From Gaiellaceae bacterium (lineage in GTDB: Bacteria; Actinomycetota; Thermoleophilia; Gaiellales; Gaiellaceae), in NCBI GenBank assembly GCA_035640455.1, contig DASQWB010000032.1, positions 7,189 to 71,188 on the forward strand: DNA of 64,000 nucleotides. Reading direction: 5' to 3'. Below are positions 8,225-54,128 of the stretch, piece after piece (positions within the stretch are counted from its first letter, which is position 1; every line of letters begins with the position of its first letter). The translations under genes and the position numbers were made by a program. The notes below the pieces were generated by a model. The model was not told the DNA's origin, searched no databases, and was given only the letters and a program-made list of their open reading frames with translations.

Positions 8225-8451
8225 CCGCTTCCCTCGAGGCACGGCTCCGGGAGGCGTTTCCGGACGCGACAGAGCTCTCCGTGACCGATCGGACGGGCGG
8301 CGGCGACCACTTCCACGTGCGGGTGAGGAGCGCGCGGCTGAACGGCCTCTCGCTCGTCGATCAGCACAAGCTCGTCTACGAGGCGCTCGCAGAGCCGCTC
8401 GCCGATGGCACCATTCACGAGCTGAGGATCACGACGAGGGGAACCGAATGA
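8221..8451 (+). CDS. BolA family protein
   Basis: 76 aa with DRTGGGDHFHVRVRS...QHKLVY. GTGA overlap with CBS. Confidence 0.75.
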   Translation: MTASLEARLREAFPDATELSVTDRTGGGDHFHVRVRSARLNGLSLVDQHKLVYEALAEPLADGTIHELRITTRGTE

Positions 8452-18646: not shown

Positions 18647-19378
18647 CTACTCGGTGCGCAGGATGCGGCCACCGCTCGATTGCGCGAGCGCCTTGACGAC
18701 GATCTCGTCGACATTGACATGCGGAGGCCGCGTGAGCGCGAACAGGATGCACTCGGCGATGTCGTCCGGGCTCATCGCCTCGACACCGGTGTAGACGGCG
18801 CGCGCCTTCTCCGCGTCGCCGCGGAAGCGGACGAGCGAGAAGTCGGTCTCGACGAGCCCGGGATCGACGGTCGTAATCCGGATCGGCCGGCCGAGCAGGT
18901 CCTCACGCAGCGCGTAGGTGAAGCCGCGCACCGCGAACTTCGACGTCACGTAGAGCGCCGCGTTCTCGTACGCCTGCCGGCCGGCGACCGAGCCCATGTT
19001 GACGACGTGCCCGCCGTCGCGCAGGTGCGGGAGGCAGAGGCGCGTCATCCGGATCAGCCCGTTCACGTTCGTCTCGAGCACGACTCGCTCGTCCTCCTCG
19101 CTCGAGGCGTCGAACGGATCGCGCCCGAGCGCGAGGCCGGCGGCGTTCACGAGGACGTCGAGCGGGCCCAGCTCTTGCACGACGCGCTCGACGAAGCGCG
19201 CGCAGCTCGCCGGGTCGGTGACGTCGAGCTCGAGCGCGAGATCTCCCTCGAGTCGGTCGGCCCGCCGCGCGCCGACGGCGACCCTGGCGCCCTCGCGCCG
19301 GAGAGCCCTCGCCGTCGCCGCGCCGATCCCGCTCGACGCGCCGGTGACGATCGCCGTCTTGCCGTCGAGGGCGCCCAC
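18647..19378 (-). CDS. SDR family oxidoreductase
   Basis: TAIVTGASSGIGAA, NAAG and YVTSKFAV (YxxxK) motifs. Confidence 0.85.
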   Translation of the reverse strand: MGALDGKTAIVTGASSGIGAATARALRREGARVAVGARRADRLEGDLALELDVTDPASCARFVERVVQELGPLDVLVNAAGLALGRDPFDASSEEDERVVLETNVNGLIRMTRLCLPHLRDGGHVVNMGSVAGRQAYENAALYVTSKFAVRGFTYALREDLLGRPIRITTVDPGLVETDFSLVRFRGDAEKARAVYTGVEAMSPDDIAECILFALTRPPHVNVDEIVVKALAQSSGGRILRTE

Positions 19379-19390
19379 GCGCGGAGCTTA

Positions 19391-19553
19391 GAGCCCCTTT
19401 CGGGACGAACGCGCGCTGATCGGGTGCGCTGGGCGAGTGCGAGCCAAGGACGCAGGGAGCGTTCGTAGCCGGAGGCTACGGGCGCGACCGAGGACGCAGG
19501 ATCGTGGCGCCCAGCGCGGCCGGGCAGCCCGCGGCTCATTCCGAAAGGGGCTC
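19391..19553 (+). repeat. family-1 long-hairpin element, copy C
   Basis: Terminal arms GAGCCCCTTTCGG / CCGAAAGGGGCTC. The core CCAAGGACGCAGGGAGCGT...GGCGCGACCGAGGACGC is shared with copies at 39281-39449 and 52715-52882. Confidence 0.6.
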
Positions 19554-19976
19554 TCTAAGGCGTTCGAGCGGCTCCCAGACGAGCTCGGCGACGTCGACGA
19601 CAACCCCACCGGTCGTGATTTCGCCGACCACGGTGCAGACGACGTCGTTCAGGCGCGCATAGCGGTCGTCGTCGCTGAGGTGGGTCATGCTCCCGACCAG
19701 CTCGCGTCCGCCGGGGCCCTCGCTGCGGAGGAAGCCGTACAAGGCGATCATCAGCACTGCGCCGTCGTCGGTCTCGACGACGCCGCGAAAATCGGGGACG
19801 AGTGTGCCGTCGGCGCGACGCCGTGGGAAGTTGGCCGCCCGGAACCGCCCCATCACCTGCCCTTCACACCGGCCTTCGGCGATAAAGAAGCTCTGCCCCT
19901 CGGCGCCGTCGAAGAGGTCGACGCTCCATCCCTCGGGGGTGGTCCAGCGAATCCGGTAGAGCGGCTCGAGGCGCAT
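19536..19976 (-). CDS. DUF3237-like protein
   Basis: 146 aa; the assignment is from recalled family resemblance only. The last codons overlap the arm of repeat copy C. Confidence 0.6.
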   Translation of the reverse strand: MRLEPLYRIRWTTPEGWSVDLFDGAEGQSFFIAEGRCEGQVMGRFRAANFPRRRADGTLVPDFRGVVETDDGAVLMIALYGFLRSEGPGGRELVGSMTHLSDDDRYARLNDVVCTVVGEITTGGVVVDVAELVWEPLERLREPLSE

Positions 19977-22054: not shown

Positions 22055-22082
22055 GGCACCGTAGCGCGGGCTCAGGCCAACC

Positions 22083-22141
22083 CCGAGTGACAGTCACTCG
22101 GACCCGGCCAGCAGGGGCGTGTCGGAGTGACTGTCACTCCG
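22083..22141. promoter_or_regulatory. two 19-bp palindromes (candidate operator pair) upstream of the CDF gene
   Basis: CCGAGTGACAGTCACTCGG at 22083-22101 and CGGAGTGACTGTCACTCCG at 22123-22141, with centres 40 bp apart. The proximal one is 29 bp from the CDF ATG. Confidence 0.45.
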
Positions 22142-23236
22142 GGTTCCCGCGGCCCAGGCGCGGCCGGCGGCGACTCGCTCGGGCGCGGTCGGGTGGGTGA
22201 AGAGGAGCGCGTAGACCGGCCGCGGCGGAGCGAGGTCCGAGAGGTTGGCCGCCGCGAGGCGCACGTGGGCCGTCTCGAAGGCCTCGAGGTCTCTCGTCAG
22301 CTCGAGCGAGAAGCGATCGGCGTGCCGCTCCCAGCGCCGCGAGATCGCCGAGCCCAGCGGAAGCGCCGCCAGCTCGAGCGCCGTCACGAGCAGGAGCACG
22401 AGCGGCGCCTGCCGCGGATCCGCCGGGTGGGAGACGAGCTCCCACAACACGACGACGGCCGCGGCCGCTCCGGCCATGCCGAGCAGGGTCCCCTTGGCGA
22501 CGTGCCGCGCGTGCCGGTGGCCGAGCTCGTGGGCGACGACGAGCTCGATCTGGCGCGGCTCCTCGGCGGTGAGCAGCGTGTCGAAGAGGACGACGCGCCG
22601 AGTCGCGCCGAGCCCGGAGACGTACGCGTTCAGCTTCCGCGTGCGGCGGCTCGCGTCGGCGACGAGGACGTCGCGGACGGGGACTCCGGCCCGGCGTGCG
22701 AGGGCGCGCAGCCGCGAGGCGAGGTCCGCGTCCTGGAGCGGCCGGAAGCGGTTGAACAGCGGCTCGAGGACGACCGGCGTGACGAACCCGAAGAGCAGCA
22801 CCGCCGCGGCGGCGACCGGGGCTGCCACGACGGGCCAGCCGCGAGGGAAGGCGCGTGCCAGCCCGACGAGCGCGAGGACCGCCGCCGAGGTGAGGACGAG
22901 GCCGACGCCGAAGCTCTTGAGCCGGTCGAAGAGCCAGCCGCGCGCGGTCTGCGTCGAGAACCCCCAGCGCCGCTCGCGGACGTGGCCGCGCCAGAACGCG
23001 AGCGGCAGCCGCACGAGCGTCGAGACGCCGACGACGAGCGCCGGGAAGGCGAGCGCCCGCCCCCACCACGGGAGCGAGTCGACCGCGCCGTACAGCCGGT
23101 CGCCCGCGCCCGTGAACGCCGCCGCCGACAAAACGGCCAATCCGAGCGTCACATCAAGCAGAAGAGCGACGTAGAGCGGCCGGTGGTAACGCCGCGCCCG
23201 CTCGACCTGCTCGACGCTGAAGAGCTCGGCCGGCAT
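22094..23236 (-). CDS. M48 family (Ste24/HtpX-like) zinc metallopeptidase, membrane
   Basis: VVAHELGHRHARH HExxH motif and several TM helices. Confidence 0.8.
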   Translation of the reverse strand: MPAELFSVEQVERARRYHRPLYVALLLDVTLGLAVLSAAAFTGAGDRLYGAVDSLPWWGRALAFPALVVGVSTLVRLPLAFWRGHVRERRWGFSTQTARGWLFDRLKSFGVGLVLTSAAVLALVGLARAFPRGWPVVAAPVAAAAVLLFGFVTPVVLEPLFNRFRPLQDADLASRLRALARRAGVPVRDVLVADASRRTRKLNAYVSGLGATRRVVLFDTLLTAEEPRQIELVVAHELGHRHARHVAKGTLLGMAGAAAAVVVLWELVSHPADPRQAPLVLLLVTALELAALPLGSAISRRWERHADRFSLELTRDLEAFETAHVRLAAANLSDLAPPRPVYALLFTHPTAPERVAAGRAWAAGTRSDSHSDTPLLAGSE

Positions 23237-34924: not shown

Positions 34925-36041
34925 CACTTCGCCGCGCGCGGCGAAGTGAGTCCTCCGAAATCGGGTGGATCCCCCGCCCACCGATTGTGAACCTCTGCCA
35001 GGAGGCTCGGACCGTCCCGCGCGGCGAAGTGAGTCTGGTGAGATCGGGTCGGGAGAGGGCGCGGGTGCCTCTGGATTCTCGCGCAGCTAGGAGGGATTGG
35101 CGCCGCGGGTCGGGCGCGCGGGTCGGGCGCGCGCGGCGAAGTGAGTCCTCCGAAATCCCCCTCCTAGCCGCACGGCTGCCGGGAGCGCGCAGGGCCCCGG
35201 CGAACCTCGCTGAGCCAGACCGTCCCGCGCGCGGCGAAGTGAGTCCGCCAGCCGCATGGCGTTCGGCGAGCCGCCCGGGCGGAAACGCTGCACGCGCTGT
35301 ACGACTCCGAGGTTTAGACTCCGGTTATGGACCTCACGCGTGTCCGGAATCGGACTCTCGTCTATTTCGGCATTGCCGAGGCCGAGGAAGTCGAGTTCCC
35401 CCAGCGCATCTCACCGTTCAAGAGCGGCTTGGGTGTCGTTGTGGGAGCGGTCGTCGCTGGAGTCTTGTTCGGGCTCGTCGAGCGCGACGTCACTGAGGGC
35501 GTGGTCGTTGGCGGAATCTGGCTCGGCCTGATGACTATCCGCTCGGCCTTGGCTCATCACCGCGCCAGACAAGACAAGATGAGCCGAACTCGCTCCTAGG
35601 TCAAAGCGGTAAGCAGCCGCAGCGCGCATCGCGAGCGCCGCCGTTGGGGTAAAACAATCGCGAACGTGGGGTAGCCCGCTCAGCGGCTCAACCGGCAGGG
35701 CGCATGGCTACTGGCCTTACAGCGTTGCGCCAATCCCTCCTAGAAGCGTGTTCGTGCCCATTCAGATAGGCGCCAGAGCCCCGGCGAGCCTCGCTGAGCC
35801 AGACCGTCCCGCGCGCGGCGAAGTGAGTCCGTTGAGATCGGGCCCGGGGAGAGCGCGGGTGCTTCGCTCGACGCCTTCACGGCACGTTCAGCACTCGCGA
35901 CGCTCGACGCCCTCGATCTCGTTGATCAGTCGCTCGTCTCCTGTTCGGGGAGAGCGCGCAGAGCCCCGGCAAACCTCGCTGAGTCAGACCGTCCCGCGCG
36001 CGGCGAAGTGAGTCCGTTGAGATCGGTCGGGGAGAGCGCCC
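34925..36041 (+). repeat. field of six dispersed direct repeats sharing the core CGCGCGGCGAAGTGAGTC
   Basis: Cores lie near 34935, 35019, 35131, 35227, 35811 and 35997. The two longest copies (35776-35861 and 35947-36041) are about 90 bp and nearly identical. The first copy is a perfect 24-bp palindrome (34925-34948). Confidence 0.6.
35327..35599 (+). CDS. possible small two-TM membrane protein
   Basis: 90 aa with GLGVVVGAVVAGVLFGLV and VVVGGIWLGLMTI. No clear SD. It lies inside the TIR-bounded segment 35087-35743. Confidence 0.3.
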   Translation: MDLTRVRNRTLVYFGIAEAEEVEFPQRISPFKSGLGVVVGAVVAGVLFGLVERDVTEGVVVGGIWLGLMTIRSALAHHRARQDKMSRTRS

Positions 36042-37489: not shown

Positions 37490-37562
37490 TGGGCGGTGCT
37501 GGGCTCGAACCAGCGACCTCCTGCTTGTAAGGCAGGCGCTCTCCCAGCTGAGCTAACCGCCC
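37490..37562 (-). tRNA. tRNA-Val(TAC): tRNA-Val (anticodon TAC)
   Basis: rc: GGGCGGTTAGCTCAGCTGGGAGAGCGCCTGCCTTACAAGCAGGAGGTCGCTGGTTCGAGCCCAGCACCGCCCA. Cloverleaf checked by hand; anticodon loop CTTACAA. Confidence 0.9.
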
Positions 37563-37638
37563 TGGTGCCCCCAGCGGGATTCGAACCCGCGCTACGGCCT
37601 TGAAAGGGCCGTGACCTGGGCCGCTAGTCGATGGGGGC
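37563..37638 (-). tRNA. tRNA-Glu(TTC): tRNA-Glu (anticodon TTC), CCA encoded
   Basis: rc: GCCCCCATCGACTAGCGGCCCAGGTCACGGCCCTTTCAAGGCCGTAGCGCGGGTTCGAATCCCGCTGGGGGCACCA. Confidence 0.9.
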
Positions 37639-37690
37639 GGCCGGGCAAGAATAGCCGCCTCCGGCGGGACGACCTGCGAGACTTCCTGCC

Positions 37691-38020
37691 GTGACGGAGC
37701 TTCCCCCGGAGGCCGAGCAGCACGGCATCGCGCCGGCCGTCGAGCCCGAGCCCGGCACGATCGTCGAGACGCGCGAGGAGCGGATCGCCCACCGGCGGCG
37801 CCAGCAGCGCCTCTACGCGTGGGCGTTCCTGCTCGTCGCGTTCCTCGTCGTCCTCGTCGCGCTCGTCGTCGCGAACACGCGCAGCGTGAAGATCAGCTGG
37901 GTCGTCGGCTCGACGCGCACGTCGCTGATCTGGATCATCATCGTCTCCGCCGTCCTCGGCTGGCTCAGCGGGGTCGTCACGAGCCTGCTGTTCGGCCGCC
38001 GCAGGCGCCGCGCGCGCTGA
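37691..38020 (+). CDS. LapA/DUF1049-like small membrane protein
   Basis: 109 aa with two TM helices (YAWAFLLVAFLVVLVALVVA and LIWIIIVSAVLGWLSGVV) and a basic tail. Confidence 0.55.
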   Translation: MTELPPEAEQHGIAPAVEPEPGTIVETREERIAHRRRQQRLYAWAFLLVAFLVVLVALVVANTRSVKISWVVGSTRTSLIWIIIVSAVLGWLSGVVTSLLFGRRRRRAR

Positions 38021-38038
38021 TTCCTATACTCGGCTGCG

Positions 38039-38110
38039 GGGCCGGTAGCTCAGTGGTAGAGCAGGGGACTTTTAATCCCAAGGCCGCAGGTTCGAATCCT
38101 GCCCGGCCCA
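38039..38110 (+). tRNA. tRNA-Lys(TTT): tRNA-Lys (anticodon TTT)
   Basis: GGGCCGGTAGCTCAGTGGTAGAGCAGGGGACTTTTAATCCCAAGGCCGCAGGTTCGAATCCTGCCCGGCCCA. Confidence 0.9.
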
Positions 38111-38117
38111 CCTAGGA

Positions 38118-39279
38118 TGGACTGTCACCGAGTGGTCCCGACACTCGGGCCTTTCTTCTTGAGCTGGTAGGCGTGGACGGCGCCCGTCAGAGCGCCGTCC
38201 GGTTTTCGGCTCACGCTCGCCTTCGACCACCACGTCGGAAGGAGAGGAGTGCGCCGCATGTCGGAGGATGACGTGTTGTTCGGCTACCGGTTACGTGTGC
38301 TTGACCACGCCGGTCGCACCTCGGTGAGTGAGGCCTGTCGGGTGTTCGGGATCCATCGTTCGACCTACTACGTCTGGAAGCGGCGGGCGGAGCGGCATGG
38401 GCTCGAGATCCTGCGTCCACGGGAGCGGCGCAGGCCGCGGATGCCGCAGCAGTTCTCTCCATTCGTTGAGGAGCGGATCGTCGCTTTCGCGCTCGGGCAT
38501 CCCGGGCTCGGCCCGGGGCGGATCGCGGCGGAGCTGCGCAAGCCGCGCTGGGGCGGCATCGTCGTCTCGCACAACGGCGTTTGGCGCTGTCTGCGACGCC
38601 ACGGGCTCAACACGCGTGCCAAGCGGCTCTCGCTCGTCGCGGGCTACGCCGCGCCCTACGAGCCGCCGCGGCAGCCAGAGCCGGAGCGGCATGTCGAGGC
38701 CGAGCGACCCGGTGAGCTGGTGGGGATGGACTGCTTCTTTGTCGGCAGGCTCGCCGGCTCCAAGGGCTCGGTCTGGCAGCTGACCGCGATCGACGTCGCC
38801 TCCAGCTACGCCGGGGCCGAGCTCGTCACCTGCCCGAAGGGAAACCCGACCGGCCGGCAAGCCTCGAAGCTCGCCCGGCGCGTCGCGGCCGAGCTGCAAG
38901 CCGCCGGCTGGCGGCTCGAGCGCGTGCTCACCGACAACGGTGGCGAGTTCCGCTCAACCGACTTCCGCGACACGCTCGCCAGCCTCGGCACCCGGCACAC
39001 GCTGATCCGCGCCGGCCGGCCGCAGACGAACGGCGCAGTCGAAGCGCTGCACAAGACGATCCTCGACGAATGCTGGCGCCCCGCCTTCGCCCGCTACCTG
39101 CACGTTCGCTTCACCGGCCTGAAGCGCGACCTCGACGCCTACCTCCGCTACTACGACGACGAGCGCGCCCACACCGGCCGCCTCACCCGCGGTCGCATCC
39201 CCGCCGAGATCGTCTACGGTGCCCGCAAGGTGAGAGCGAGATGAGCCGAAACTGTCGGCACATCTCGGTGACGATCCAA
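38118..39279 (+). mobile_element. IS481-family insertion sequence (about 1.16 kb)
   Basis: Imperfect terminal IRs: TGGACTGTCACCGAG... on the left and the rc of the right end, TTGGATCGTCACCGAG... Flanked by direct repeat CCTAGGA (38111-38117 and 39280-39286). Single DDE transposase ORF. Confidence 0.8.
38249..39244 (+). CDS. IS481-family DDE transposase (HTH plus rve integrase core)
   Basis: 331 aa with SVSEACRVFGIHRSTYYVWKRR, WQLTAIDVASSY, TDNGGEF and RPQTNGAVEALHKT. Confidence 0.85.
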   Translation: MRRMSEDDVLFGYRLRVLDHAGRTSVSEACRVFGIHRSTYYVWKRRAERHGLEILRPRERRRPRMPQQFSPFVEERIVAFALGHPGLGPGRIAAELRKPRWGGIVVSHNGVWRCLRRHGLNTRAKRLSLVAGYAAPYEPPRQPEPERHVEAERPGELVGMDCFFVGRLAGSKGSVWQLTAIDVASSYAGAELVTCPKGNPTGRQASKLARRVAAELQAAGWRLERVLTDNGGEFRSTDFRDTLASLGTRHTLIRAGRPQTNGAVEALHKTILDECWRPAFARYLHVRFTGLKRDLDAYLRYYDDERAHTGRLTRGRIPAEIVYGARKVRAR

Positions 39280-39280
39280 C

Positions 39281-39449
39281 CTAGGAGGGATTGGCGGAAC
39301 ATCGCTTGTGCCGCCCGAAGCGCGCTGCTCGTCCCGATGCGGCGTCCTCAGTCGCGCCGATAGCGCTGCTATCGACGCTCCCTGCGTCCTTGCCTCGCAA
39401 CGAGCATCACGCTCCGTGCGACGAACGACGTTCCGCCAATCCCTCCTAG
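39281..39449 (-). repeat. family-1 long-hairpin element, copy A
   Basis: Perfect 20-bp terminal inverted repeat CTAGGAGGGATTGGCGGAAC. The core, about 95 bp, is nearly identical to the rc of copy B. Before the IS insertion it abutted the tRNA-Lys 3' end. Confidence 0.65.
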
Positions 39450-39787
39450 CAGGGCTCGTTGGCCCAGCCGAGAAGCTTCCACTCCCCCTCGCGGCGCACG
39501 AACAGGCGAAGGTTGTGGAACTCTCGGCCCTCGACCGCGACGATGCACTTGACGATCGCTCGATCTCCGTAGACCTCGATCGGCTCGACGATGCGGGTGG
39601 CGCGAGCGCTGCCCGCCTTGACCTTCTGGAGGAAGGCGACCTGATCGTCGACGGTTCGGGACTCGTCCGCTCGCTGAAACGCGAGTCGGGGCGCAAGGAT
39701 CGTGGAGAGCCAGTCGCGGTCGCCGCTGCTCTCGGCCGCGCCGATCCTCTCGTTCAGCTCCCTGAGCGCCAGCTCGTCAGCGCTCAC
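39446..39787 (-). CDS. NTF2-like (DUF4440/SnoaL-like) protein
   Basis: 113 aa; the fold assignment is by pattern only. Its stop codon is the TAG inside the terminal CTAG of element A. Confidence 0.55.
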   Translation of the reverse strand: MSADELALRELNERIGAAESSGDRDWLSTILAPRLAFQRADESRTVDDQVAFLQKVKAGSARATRIVEPIEVYGDRAIVKCIVAVEGREFHNLRLFVRREGEWKLLGWANEPC

Positions 39788-51482: not shown

Positions 51483-52718
51483 ATGCTGCGGCGCTTCTTC
51501 AGGGTCCGTGTCGGGCGGCCACGCTTTCCCGAAGGCGAGGTCGTACCCTGGGGCGGGATCGCGTTCGTGGGCGCGACCTGCTCGCTTGCGCTGGGCCTCG
51601 TGCTCGCGTCGGCCGGGCACGCGTCGACTCGGCACTGGCAGGCGATCACCGTGCTCACGGTCCTGGCGGCCCTGACGCCGCTCTTCACCGTCTACGGGCC
51701 GGCGTTCACCGTCTACGACACCGCGTCGGTCTTCGTCGTCGCGGCCGCTCTGCTCGCCTCGCCCGTGGTGGCCGCGCTGGTGGGGCTCCCCGCCTGCCTC
51801 GTCGACGCGGTGCGGCGTCGCATCTCCGTCGTCTCGCTCGCGCACAACTCGGCCGCGCTCGCGCTCGCCGCCTTCACGACCTCGCTGCTGGCCCAAGCCT
51901 TGGCGGGGCTTCCGCCCGTGCCGCGGGCGCTCGTCCTGCTCGGCGCGATCGGTTGCTACGCCTGGATCATCACCGGCGCGGATGCCCTTTTCGGCTGCTT
52001 CGCCCGCGGCAGCTCGCGACCGCGGCTCCCCATGGCGGCCCTCGCCGCCGAGGCGGCTCTGGCCTCGATCGGCGTCGGCTTCGCCGCGCTCCTGGCGGAG
52101 GATCCTTGGCGGGCGCCGTTCGCGCTCGCGCCCGTGCTCTTCATCCATCGTCTCCAGCGCCTGCCGGCGCTCGAGGAGGAAGCGGCGACAGATGCGAAGA
52201 CGGGCCTCCTCAACATGCGCTGCTTCGAGCGCGAGCTCGAGCGGCTCTGCACGGGCGGGCAGCTCGCGCGACCGCTGAGCCTGCTCGTGATCGACCTCGA
52301 CCACCTACGCGAGATCAACAACCGCTTCGGCCATCTTGCCGGCGACGCCGTCATTCGTGCCGTCGCCCGACTCATCGACGGAGAGCTGCGTCCGGCCGAT
52401 CGCGCGGCCCGGTTCGGCGGCGAGGAGTTCGTCGTCGCGATCCCCGAGATCGCTCCGGAGGACGCGGTCGCGGTTGCGGGCCGTCTGCGCGAGGCCGTCG
52501 CGTCGTCGCTCTTCAACGCGAACGATCCCCCGCTCACCTGCCGTGCGACCGTGTCGATCGGCGTCGCGCACGCACCGGGAGACGCGACGACGCCGCGCGA
52601 GCTGCTTCACGCCGCCGACCTCGCCGTCCTCCAGGCGAAGCTGCTCGGGCGGAACCGCGTGGTCGAGCGGCGAGAGCTGGAGGCAGCGACGGCCGAACAG
52701 ACGAGCGGCTCGGCCTAG
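51483..52718 (+). CDS. membrane-bound diguanylate cyclase (GGDEF)
   Basis: N-terminal TM domain, then DLDHLREINNRFGHLAGD and RFGGEEFVV (GGEEF). Its stop TAG lies in the CTAG end of element B. Confidence 0.8.
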   Translation: MLRRFFRVRVGRPRFPEGEVVPWGGIAFVGATCSLALGLVLASAGHASTRHWQAITVLTVLAALTPLFTVYGPAFTVYDTASVFVVAAALLASPVVAALVGLPACLVDAVRRRISVVSLAHNSAALALAAFTTSLLAQALAGLPPVPRALVLLGAIGCYAWIITGADALFGCFARGSSRPRLPMAALAAEAALASIGVGFAALLAEDPWRAPFALAPVLFIHRLQRLPALEEEAATDAKTGLLNMRCFERELERLCTGGQLARPLSLLVIDLDHLREINNRFGHLAGDAVIRAVARLIDGELRPADRAARFGGEEFVVAIPEIAPEDAVAVAGRLREAVASSLFNANDPPLTCRATVSIGVAHAPGDATTPRELLHAADLAVLQAKLLGRNRVVERRELEAATAEQTSGSA

Positions 52719-52882
52719 GAGGGTCCGGCGAAACGGCCTTCGTCGGCCGGGCCGTGATGCTCGTTCCGAGGCAAGGACGCAGGGAGCGTCGATAGCAGCG
52801 CTATCGGCGCGACTGAGGACGCCGCATCGGGACGAGCAGCGCGGCGCGGACGGCACAAGGGTGTTTCGCCGGCCCCTCCTAG
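52715..52882 (+). repeat. family-1 long-hairpin element, copy B
   Basis: Arms CTAGGAGGGTCCGGCGAAAC / GTTTCGCCGGCCCCTCCTAG. It exactly fills the gap between two convergent genes. Confidence 0.65.
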
Positions 52883-52883
52883 C

Positions 52884-54128
52884 TCAGCCGGCTTCCACGA
52901 CGCGGGCGATCGTCTTCGTCGCCAGCGCGTCGAGCGCTCGCACCGAGAGCTCCAGGTGCTCCGGCTTCGTGTCCTCGAGCTTCGTGTGCGAGAGGCCGCG
53001 GAGCGACTGGACGAAGAGCATCACGGTCGGCACCCCGGCGCGCGCGACCTCGGCCGCGTCGTGGAGCGGGCCGCTCGGCAGCCGGTGCGACTGGCCCGCC
53101 ACCTCGCGCACCGCCTCGTCCGCGAGCTCGATCAGCGCCTCGTCGAAGAGGATCGGCTCGATGTTCCAGATCCGCTCCCACTCGACGTCGATGTTCTCCT
53201 CTTGCGCGAAGCGCTTCGATGCGCGCTTCGCCTCGTCGAGCATCGCCGCGAGTTTCTCCGCGTCGAGGTGCCGCTGGTCGAGGAGGCACTCGGCGGTCTC
53301 GACGACCGAGGTGACGATGCCCGGCTTCGTGACCACGCCGCCCATCGTGCAGACCGCGCCGCCGCCCGTCCGCTTCGCGATCTCGCGGATCTCGAGCTCG
53401 AGCTTCGCGGCCCCCGCGAGCGCGTCGCGGCGCTTGTCCATCGGGGTCGATCCCGCGTGCGCGGCCTGGCCGCGGAAGGTGACCTGGTGGCGTTCGACGC
53501 CGAAGGTGCCGAGGACGACGCCGAGCGGCAGCTCCATCGACTCGAGCACCGGCCCTTGCTCGATGTGCAGCTCGAGGTAGGCCGCGGCGCCGTCGAGCTG
53601 GCGCCGGGCCTCCGTCGCGCGGTCGAGGACGACGCCGTGCCGGCCCACGACCTCCGGCAGCGCGTTCCCGTCGGCGTCGCGCCGCTCGCGCAGCTCGTCC
53701 TGGTCGGCCATCGAGCCGGCCGCCGCGCTCGAGCCGAAGAGCGAGCGGCCGAAGCGCGCCCCCTCCTCGTCGGCCCAGTTCACGAGCCGGACCGTCGCCG
53801 CCGGTTGCCCCTCCTCCGCGAGCCGCCGCAGCACCTCCACGCCGGCCATGACGTTCAGCGCCCCGTCGAGCCAGCCGCCGTTCGGCACCGAGTCGATGTG
53901 CCCGCCGATCAGGACGGCCCGGTCGGAGTCGCCGTGCAGCGTCCACCACTGGTTCGCGGCCTCGTCCTCTGCGAGCTCCAGCGGCAGCCCGGAGAGCTTG
54001 TCGGTGAACCACTCGCGGGCGCGTACCCATGTGTCCGTCCAGGCCACGCGCTGGGCGCCGTTCTCGTCGCTGGTCAGCTCCTGGAGCTCACGCAGCTCGG
54101 CCACGGTGCGCGACGGCGTGAGAGGCAC
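52884..54128 (-). CDS. M20-family amidase (N-carbamoyl-amino-acid / allantoate amidohydrolase type)
   Basis: 414 aa with GGHIDSVPNGGWLDGALNV and HAGSTPM motifs. Confidence 0.85.
   Translation of the reverse strand: MPLTPSRTVAELRELQELTSDENGAQRVAWTDTWVRAREWFTDKLSGLPLELAEDEAANQWWTLHGDSDRAVLIGGHIDSVPNGGWLDGALNVMAGVEVLRRLAEEGQPAATVRLVNWADEEGARFGRSLFGSSAAAGSMADQDELRERRDADGNALPEVVGRHGVVLDRATEARRQLDGAAAYLELHIEQGPVLESMELPLGVVLGTFGVERHQVTFRGQAAHAGSTPMDKRRDALAGAAKLELEIREIAKRTGGGAVCTMGGVVTKPGIVTSVVETAECLLDQRHLDAEKLAAMLDEAKRASKRFAQEENIDVEWERIWNIEPILFDEALIELADEAVREVAGQSHRLPSGPLHDAAEVARAGVPTVMLFVQSLRGLSHTKLEDTKPEHLELSVRALDALATKTIARVVEAG

Follow-up and report, generated by a model that had tools for sequence, protein, structure and literature searches.

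Miniature inverted-repeat transposable elements (MITEs) which are flanked by TA and fold as long RNA hairpins with internal protein-binding sites have been described (PMC3184786). The ERIC and Correia/NEMIS sequences are 100–170 bp in size, form a hairpin over their whole length, carry TA at both ends and possess no transposase of their own. They reside in transcribed intergenic regions at gene ends, in tens to hundreds of copies, and for Correia a protein-binding site inside the element is known (IHF) (PMC3184786). REP and REPIN sequences are likewise extragenic hairpins at gene ends, which are recognized in single-stranded form, keep conserved unpaired nucleotides beside the stem and show long vertical persistence (PMC3733652). 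Integron attC sites are single-strand hairpin sites, of which one strand is used and whose structure and unpaired bases are conserved while the stem sequence is free. The element described here resembles these systems in the features named. It occurs in three copies (A, B and C) in 64,000 nucleotides (nt) of a Gaiellaceae bacterium (contig DASQWB010000032.1, positions 7,189 to 71,188), a stretch referred to as the window. An earlier note on this DNA had offered structured RNA or an unusual MITE as an either/or. This alternative proved to be false since the element seems to combine both aspects, that of a mobile palindromic repeat and that of a long-kept structure with a constrained core. On balance, we consider it probable that it is an ERIC/Correia-type MITE with a recognition core that is read single-stranded.

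The element also departs from each of the known systems. To ERIC and Correia/NEMIS there is no sequence relationship, and the host belongs to another phylum. The present family is most conserved at its centre, and its termini vary by subfamily and, in a short type, with every copy; an asymmetric core has been kept over three orders of the class Thermoleophilia, and the arms take in flanking coding sequence. The usual MITE pattern is reversed, with variable ends and a fixed, non-complementary centre, which argues for a factor reading the core. REP sequences measure 20–40 nt and carry GTAG or CGTC directly at the stem, whereas the elements studied here comprise 100–174 nt and lack GTAG at their apical hairpin (P1). 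In a REPIN, two REPs are inverted and their conserved parts are complementary, whereas the conserved blocks of our element share AGGACGC as direct, not inverted, copies. Size, the lack of GTAG at P1 and the non-complementary blocks rule out membership of the REP/REPIN group. Unlike our element, attC sites are defined by R''/R' boxes (RYYYAAC/GTTRRRY) at their base, stand in cassette arrays beside an integron integrase and are conserved at the base of the stem instead of near the apex. Membership was rejected because the termini GCGGAAC/GTTCCGC have purines for pyrimidines and because the copies are single, dispersed and in both orientations.

The three copies, and the flanks and core of copy C, are positioned as follows.

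19391–19555, plus strand: copy C, long type, 165 nt, termini GAGCCCCTTTCGG / CCGAAAGGGGCTCTC, imperfect hairpin over the whole length
39281–39449, minus strand: copy A, long type, 169 nt, CTAG at both ends, core blocks 39375–39392 and 39342–39358
52715–52882, plus strand: copy B, long type, 168 nt, CTAG at both ends, core blocks 52772–52789 and 52806–52822
19389–19390: left TA of copy C, within the -10-like hexamer TAAGCT (19385–19390, minus strand)
19556–19557: right TA of copy C, second half of the presumed TA target duplication
19445–19462, plus strand: 5′ core block CAAGGACGCAGGGAGCGT, purine-rich
19459–19485, plus strand: apical hairpin P1 of copy C, GCGTTCGTAGCC-GGA-GGCTACGGGCGC, variable in sequence with pairing kept
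19481–19497, plus strand: 3′ core block of copy C, GGCGCGACCGAGGACGC

The copies lie where the earlier note had placed them, except that copy C now ends at 19555, and its claims of shared core blocks and of flanking TA (copy C) or CTAG (copies A and B) on both sides were confirmed. CAAGGACGCAGGGAGCGT and GGCGCGACYGAGGACGC are exact in all three copies. The former, an 18-mer, matches the window exactly three times (19445, 39375 on the minus strand and 52772) while 0.11 matches are expected by chance, and none of 100 shuffles reached three. Identity between copies A and B is 87.6%, between A and C 68.6%, and copy C is about 69% identical to either. The helices had been read correctly as well: besides the terminal stem, an inner stem reads TGCTCGT/ACGAGCA in A and B but GCGCTGGG/CCCAGCGC in C, and CGATAGC-AGC-GCTATCG of the central hairpin is replaced in C by CGTAGCC-GGA-GGCTACG. 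Every copy forms one long hairpin; minimum free energies are -116.3 kcal/mol for C, -123.6 kcal/mol for A and -122.2 kcal/mol for B, and the corresponding z-scores against dinucleotide shuffles, none of which (0/200) folded equally well, amount to -9.2, -14.2 and -11.5.

Outside the window, the core pattern GGACGCAGGGAGCG-N10-40-GAGGACGC was scanned once against species-representative genomes and matched at least 120 stretches, which makes the family real and multi-copy beyond the three copies in 64 kb. The statistics on gene context, protein clusters, termini and folds given below rest on this set of at least 120 stretches among the matches listed. Nearly all stretches belong to metagenome-assembled genomes (MAGs) labelled Solirubrobacterales, Thermoleophilaceae, Gaiellaceae/Gaiellales or unclassified Actinomycetota; a taxonomy check placed the three named groups within the class Thermoleophilia. 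The sole match labelled Acidobacteriota among those listed (L008, contig JBDTXY010000426.1) is a Gaiellales-like long-type element on a 3-kb contig, which is probably mis-binned. Profile searches with a hidden Markov model (HMM) yielded 11 extra copies in approximately 907 kb of flanking DNA and two distinct extra copies in 267 kb of metagenome loci. The spacing is roughly one copy per 50–130 kb, beside unrelated genes, from which tens of copies per genome may be roughly extrapolated. Clustering of the proteins encoded next to the elements gave 212 unrelated groups of at most three members, indicating a dispersed repeat and not the regulator of one gene; on the same grounds a riboswitch, leader or other cis-regulator specific to one gene was ruled out. 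The palindromes form two size classes, one of 100–112 nt, mostly from Solirubrobacterales, and one of 160–174 nt, which is Gaiellales-like and includes the window. Long subfamilies have termini in common, e.g. CTAGGAGGGNTTGGCGGAA in A, B and nine other loci, and several different termini coexist, while the outer arms of the short type are distinct in all 54 copies. At one locus (L031, 3541–3719) a short-type copy is followed, after about 20 nt, by a second one in tandem and in the same orientation. Molecular genetics is almost absent for Thermoleophilia, which are abundant in soil; the family looks like their main intergenic repeats, and the exact 22-nt core provides a ready marker for the class.

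Covariation of the stems was assessed on a plain MAFFT alignment of 38 long-type copies, which had not been fitted to the structure, with an RNAalifold consensus. Standard pairs occupied 84.9% of the cells, compared with 35–44% when partners were slid by 1–3 columns, and both sides had changed at 48 of the 65 pairs (30–37 in the slid controls). The covariation score of 0.42 was reached by none of 500 shuffles and ranged from 0.08 to 0.17 in the slid controls. Helix 4, the apical hairpin P1, had changed on both sides at five of six pairs with 97.4% of its cells paired, and this hairpin occurs in 96 distinct sequences among 125 copies. Partners of P1 and of P2 were exchanged by folding, because the register differs between the types; chimeric long-type P1 hairpins joining 5′ and 3′ halves of different copies reached a mean of only -4.9 kcal/mol, compared with -9.7 kcal/mol for the real ones. 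In the outer 14 nt, about 12 positions pair with their own partner but 5.8 with the partner of another copy. That the stems change while staying paired, as seen at first in three copies, thus holds in the larger set well beyond both kinds of control.

As had been proposed, the core is conserved far better than the stems, which are free to vary. It has the layout CAAGGACGCAGGGAGCG - variable hairpin - GCGACYGAGGACGC, i.e. two purine-rich strands around a variable hairpin, which are non-complementary and nearly invariant within the palindrome. Because the 122 copies were collected with a search pattern that demanded CAAGGACGCAGGGAGCGT, this invariance is in part due to ascertainment, but three observations stand without that bias. 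Conservation is 90% or more for the adjoining CAA and also for GCGAC, neither of which was selected for. In the secondary copies obtained by HMM, only 1–3 of 22 core positions deviate from the pattern, with arms diverged by 30–50%, and one such copy shows a compensated change from GCG/CGC to GCC/GGC at the base of P1. The Y position (C/T) of the 3′ core block lies opposite G, forming G-C in 16 and G·U in 22 long-type copies. According to RNAalifold, much of the core is paired as an irregular helix with an AA bulge, single-A bulges, a 1x3 loop and tandem G·A beside P1. The core contains three runs of GGA similar to a Shine–Dalgarno (SD) sequence. By inspection, the forward strand may also allow a kink-turn-like layout (CY/GG, a GAG bulge and G·A) at invariant positions, although the second sheared pair would be A·C instead of A·G. 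The strongest argument that something reads the core is that it stays non-complementary in a palindrome that is otherwise homogenized.

The two strands of the element are not equivalent. Of 98 elements, 89 folded better as the purine-rich strand than as the complementary one, the advantage amounting to 16–24 kcal/mol in A, B and C (copy C, -115.4 versus -99.3). Arms of the long type contain 247 G·T but only 62 A·C mismatches, with 39 elements biased in this direction and two in the opposite one, and of 65 pairs considered singly, 40 have more G·U than A·C and seven more A·C than G·U (p = 1e-6). The ratio of G·T to A·C is alike in (+,+), (-,-) and convergent gene contexts. A mutational bias was therefore rejected as the cause, as transcription-coupled deamination predicts the opposite sign in the (-,-) context, the commonest one. 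Since the excess is independent of the transcription of the neighbours, it points to selection on the single-stranded fold of the purine-rich strand, the strand read in the earlier note. To judge from the sequences, this strand is the selected one in the long type, to which the claim is confined. The short type reveals a weaker and opposite bias (106 A·C, 64 G·T), which stems largely from one conserved motif, CCAAGC/GCGCCGG; on the complementary strand, it would form a helix with two G·U pairs and a bulged C.

Evidence for mobility, which had been suspected from the flanks, came from orthologous sites with and without the element and, in some cases, from duplications of TA or CTAG. Copy C lies beside a short-chain dehydrogenase gene, whose GTG start (19376–19378) follows the hexamer TAAGCT by 6 nt. 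An exact look-up of this protein found no record, and 80 metagenomic orthologues of the gene were compared. Every one of them (L121–L143 among the loci) has TANNNT (TAGAGT, TAAGCT or TAGGCT) 6–8 nt before the GTG. We take this hexamer to be the -10 box of a leaderless gene, in keeping with actinobacterial promoters; an overlap with the stop codon of the gene before it is frequent. By implication, leaderless genes are packed so tightly at these loci that a stop codon and the next promoter have bases in common. Among the orthologues the element is present only in L137 and L138, which are 76% identical, and is missing from closer relatives (89–80%). Copy C is situated exactly on the TA of the hexamer: the window reads GCCT-TA-[element]-TA-AGCTCC where the empty site of L121 reads GCT-TA-AGCTC, and approximately 15 other orthologues are empty as well. 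Homologues of the neighbour of copy B were distant (at most 64% identity over 67% of the length) and useless for such a test.

Similar pairs were found elsewhere. In L006, the CTAG that serves both convergent genes as a stop in the empty relative L082 occurs twice, once on each side of the element. L008 and L076 are reciprocal, each carrying an element at a site that is empty in the other, with a readable TAA duplication for L008, and a site filled in L014 is empty in L011 and L076. The elements of L008, L076 and L014 separate tandem genes whose stop and start codons overlap (ATGA or GTGA) in the empty relatives; their first bases supply a new TAA or TAG. One further site belongs to this group.

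8428–8431: empty counterpart of the long-type element of L065, five codons ahead of the ATGA in which the stop and start of two tandem genes overlap

It should be noted that palindromic ends do not always allow a duplication of TA or CTAG to be distinguished from the inverted repeat itself. L070 was not relied on as a clean empty site for the element of L038, as it may be a deletion derivative with one arm left. Other sites have been retained. In L027, L038 and L047 the element kept its position, with flanking proteins 74–89% identical; about 30% of the arm positions have changed, all of them compensated. Orthologous copies persist even where the flanking proteins are only 45–89% identical. 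Two Thermoleophilaceae MAGs carry the element between gyrB and gyrA as identified by Pfam (L020, 2315–2429; L025, 5382–5496), and in three MAGs (L041, L053 and L071) it directly follows a ThiS-family gene, whose Pfam match extends to the terminal Gly-Gly.

The position of the elements relative to genes is peculiar. In the orientation of the core, 42 contexts are convergent, 43 tandem (-,-), 18 tandem (+,+) and seven divergent (43 versus 18, p = 0.002), and of the genes lying 3′ of the core, about 92 of 120 are directed towards the element. In most contexts, therefore, the mRNA does not have the sense of the best-folding strand, and a simple cis-acting mRNA element oriented as in the earlier note does not fit. 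Stop codons of neighbouring genes usually end within the outermost 1–11 nt of an arm, in the short type for 36 of 42 genes on the right; long-type elements supply them at both ends as the TAG of the terminal CTAG. Thus the terminal CTAGs of copy B each provide the stop of one convergent open reading frame (ORF), encoding a GGDEF protein (51483–52718, plus strand) and an ORF product (52879–54030, minus strand), and copy A lies between an IS481-like insertion sequence (IS) and the stop codon of a DUF4440 gene (39446–39787, minus strand). Of 43 long copies, 18 have TA no more than 4 nt from each end, compared with 0.7% of random position pairs, and stop triplets stand at both ends of 13 of 55 short copies (1% in the control). 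The window has 71% G+C and only half of the expected TA dinucleotides; stop codons and -10 boxes are hence the places where TA occurs. The junctions used are CTAG stops shared by convergent genes, ATGA or GTGA overlaps and stops overlapping a TANNNT -10 box. As the G...C termini rebuild a stop on each strand, the reading frames of both neighbours stay intact, and the repeat can enter even such maximally compact junctions without breaking either gene.

Part of the arms is copied from flanking DNA. The palindrome of L020 is 13–16 bp longer because its left arm is an inverted copy of the last 13–16 nt of gyrB, which encode ...NLDV before the stop. The same C-terminus, which is typical of GyrB, is found in L025 outside the palindrome. 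At the ThiS-family sites, the base of the palindrome includes the stop codon together with two bases, the last ones, of the final Gly codon, and the arm on the other side matches as TGA or TAG. Both cases indicate that inverted copying from one side to the other has built and corrected the arms, at least in part. Template switching during replication creates and maintains hairpins and mimics compensatory change (PMC8794818). Our elements resemble such hairpins in the paired multi-base changes of their arms and in stems lengthened by inverted copying of a neighbour, as at gyrB in L020; by contrast, this mechanism covers the arms only and not the asymmetric core or the strand-biased wobble pairs. 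Covarying stems had been regarded as the signature of a selected structure. Since the arms are in part templated, paired changes alone are weaker proof of a selected RNA, and what stands of that view is the selection on a single strand seen in the G·U asymmetry of the long type. The family supplies natural examples of stems built from neighbouring coding DNA and calls for caution in covariation-based RNA discovery.

Taken as a mobile palindromic repeat, the family would be an old one, spread over the Thermoleophilia and made up of small non-coding hairpins that work like an ERIC/Correia-type MITE. Its core may be the recognition module for a trans-acting protein that reads the folded single purine-rich strand, either as single-stranded DNA during propagation or as RNA. 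The arms would need only to pair, with pairing presumably kept by intrastrand template switching together with selection, and the long subfamilies flanked by CTAG or TA may have been moved in trans by a transposase targeting TA or CTAG, for which the IS630 and IS481 families are candidates. Like MITEs, the elements are small, non-coding, multi-copy and dispersed, and they are present or absent at orthologous sites. Several points weigh against this interpretation. Neither the window nor 200 loci yielded an autonomous element whose ends match, which leaves the family without the cognate autonomous IS of a MITE, and the terminal likeness to the IS481-like element is limited to about 11 of 13 bases. 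Near-identical copies were not seen, A and B being the best pair, so that current mobility is unproven. The outer arms of the short type are unique even inside one genome (L037, L041), unlike the outcome of a recent cut-and-paste of a transposon with fixed ends, and the elements of L076 and L065 show no visible target duplication. That copies were retained with an intact core across deep divergence is explained by a host function no less well than by a selfish element. In addition, the choice of copies by an exact core pattern makes the core look more invariant than it is, and the gene calls behind the context counts came from a crude caller based on G+C content at third codon positions (GC3).

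A rival explanation is a domesticated structured RNA module, an intercistronic or 3′-end hairpin acting as terminator, insulator, 3′-exonuclease barrier or RNase III-type processing site like the intergenic signals of phage T7, in which the purine-rich irregular core helix binds a protein and mobility is merely the ancient origin. Such a module, which we regard as rather unlikely, would explain why the elements sit directly on stop codons with about 94% convergent or tandem 3′ contexts, why they were retained over deep divergence between gyrB and gyrA and after the ThiS-family gene with an arm that tracks TGA or TAG, and why covariation is accompanied by an excess of G·U and the core is unpaired though the rest of the palindrome is homogenized. 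By inspection, tandem G·A pairs (GGGA-GCG / CGC-GA-CY) and a k-turn-like arrangement could form at invariant positions of the forward-strand core. Moreover, SD-like runs in the 3′ arm precede start codons (GGAAGG...ATG in L008, GAGGAG...GTG in L076), and a ribosome terminating in the 5′ arm could then unmask the SD sequence. On the other hand, the better-folding, G·U-bearing strand is mostly antisense to the upstream gene, as the 43 versus 18 tandem contexts illustrate, the G·U excess does not differ between (-,-) and (+,+) contexts, no T-run follows the hairpin, and many close orthologous junctions do well without the element. An improbable third possibility is a REP-like single-stranded DNA element whose folded purine-rich strand is recognized and moved, without target duplication, by a structure-specific recombinase such as an HUH/Y1 transposase (RAYT, IS200/IS605-like). 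It agrees with strand-specific folding that is independent of transcription direction, with the conserved single-stranded blocks flanking a hairpin of freely varying stem and with the insertions lacking a visible duplication; extragenic location at gene ends and class-wide inheritance are typical of REP/REPIN (PMC3733652). The same paper, however, has no REP families reported from Actinobacteria. The element is three to five times the size of a REP, lacks a GTAG tag beside the hairpin (GACG/CGTC tetramers are about 9 nt away), and the TA, CTAG and TAA duplications at other sites point to insertion of the DDE type; a Y1 transposase was not seen among 18 window proteins scanned.

A functionless palindrome, maintained by template switching alone and with cores alike through recent descent and horizontal transfer, is hardly credible and already disfavoured. 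Inverted copying of flanks has been demonstrated here, and template switching is known to mimic compensatory change (PMC8794818), but it should erase a non-complementary core, and a strand-symmetric mechanism does not lead one to expect that G·U prevails over A·C at 40 versus seven positions. Neither do arms and cores diverge to a similar extent in the secondary copies, and recent descent hardly agrees with orthologous copies whose flanks have diverged as far as stated above. Returning to the mobile repeat with a core read by a factor, it is tentatively suggested that the core represents a new nucleic-acid recognition motif, class-wide and read single-stranded, that belongs either to a new kind of hairpin transposon with stems copied from the target or to a protein-binding RNA module. 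In the former case, stems would be rebuilt from the target by inverted copying and the element moved by a structure-specific enzyme; in the latter, genes with overlapping stop and start codons could be split and insulated.

The earlier impression that the element belongs to no known RNA family was borne out. A search of the whole window against Rfam at gathering score returned three tRNAs only, and copy C had no match at E<=10. One short-type copy matched, at E<=10, only generic microRNA-precursor hairpins with 12–24 bits, compared with gathering scores of 66–168. Membership of an Rfam family was ruled out by the absence of covariance-model matches at or near gathering score, and known ribozymes were dismissed for lack of any Rfam match. 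The hammerhead ribozyme was rejected in its own right, as it needs CUGANGA and GAAA, whereas Y is C or U here and GAAA is absent. A literature search for the core string gave nothing, a keyword search for repeats of Thermoleophilia gave general repeat papers only, and no match to the element was obtained in plasmids and viral contigs. This family of hairpin-forming intergenic repeats in Thermoleophilia has apparently not been described so far.

As to a possible mobilizer, two features of the window adjoin copy A or carry its termini.

38116–39280, plus strand: IS481-like insertion sequence with 37-nt inverted ends, encoding a 331-aa transposase (helix-turn-helix and rve domains, 38249–39244)
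35087–35743: unit of 657 bp with A-type termini CTAGGAGGGATTGGCG ... CGCCAATCCCTCCTAG, core absent

IS481 elements target NCTAGN, and IS630 elements target CTAG with duplication of TA. The IS481-like element has CCTAGG on both sides; its right CTAG is the terminus of copy A, and its left side is located at the 3′ end of a tRNA gene (38039–38110). Its first bases, CTAGGATGGACTG, are alike at 11 of 13 positions to the element terminus CTAGGAGGGATTG. The connection is a lead only. The A-type terminus had been noticed around another interior as well, and CTAGGAGGGATTGGCG indeed recurs at 35087 (plus strand) and at 35728–35743 (minus strand), enclosing the 657 bp without a core. The first 83 bp of this unit (35087–35169) constitute a separate small palindrome bounded by CTAG, and a 90-aa ORF within it (35327–35599) has no Pfam match. 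A terminus-like match in L068 lies inside a coding region and was discarded as chance.

In the same part of the window, a gene for a tyrosine integrase of phage type (36240–37475) adjoins three tRNA genes (37490–38110). With its HTH-TPR regulator, repeats and ORFs without Pfam matches, the region of about 31–37.5 kb resembles an integrated element. The 18-mer CGCGCGGCGAAGTGAGTC is present upstream of the integrase gene in six exact direct copies, all on the plus strand (34935–36014; chance expectation 0.11), at irregular spacings of 83, 112, 98, 584 and 185 nt; these copies may be protein-binding iterons. Unrelated to the hairpin family, an inverted repeat with 31-nt arms of 87% complementarity and a 5-nt spacer, containing GAGTGACAGTCACTC, was detected at another gene junction (22079–22145).

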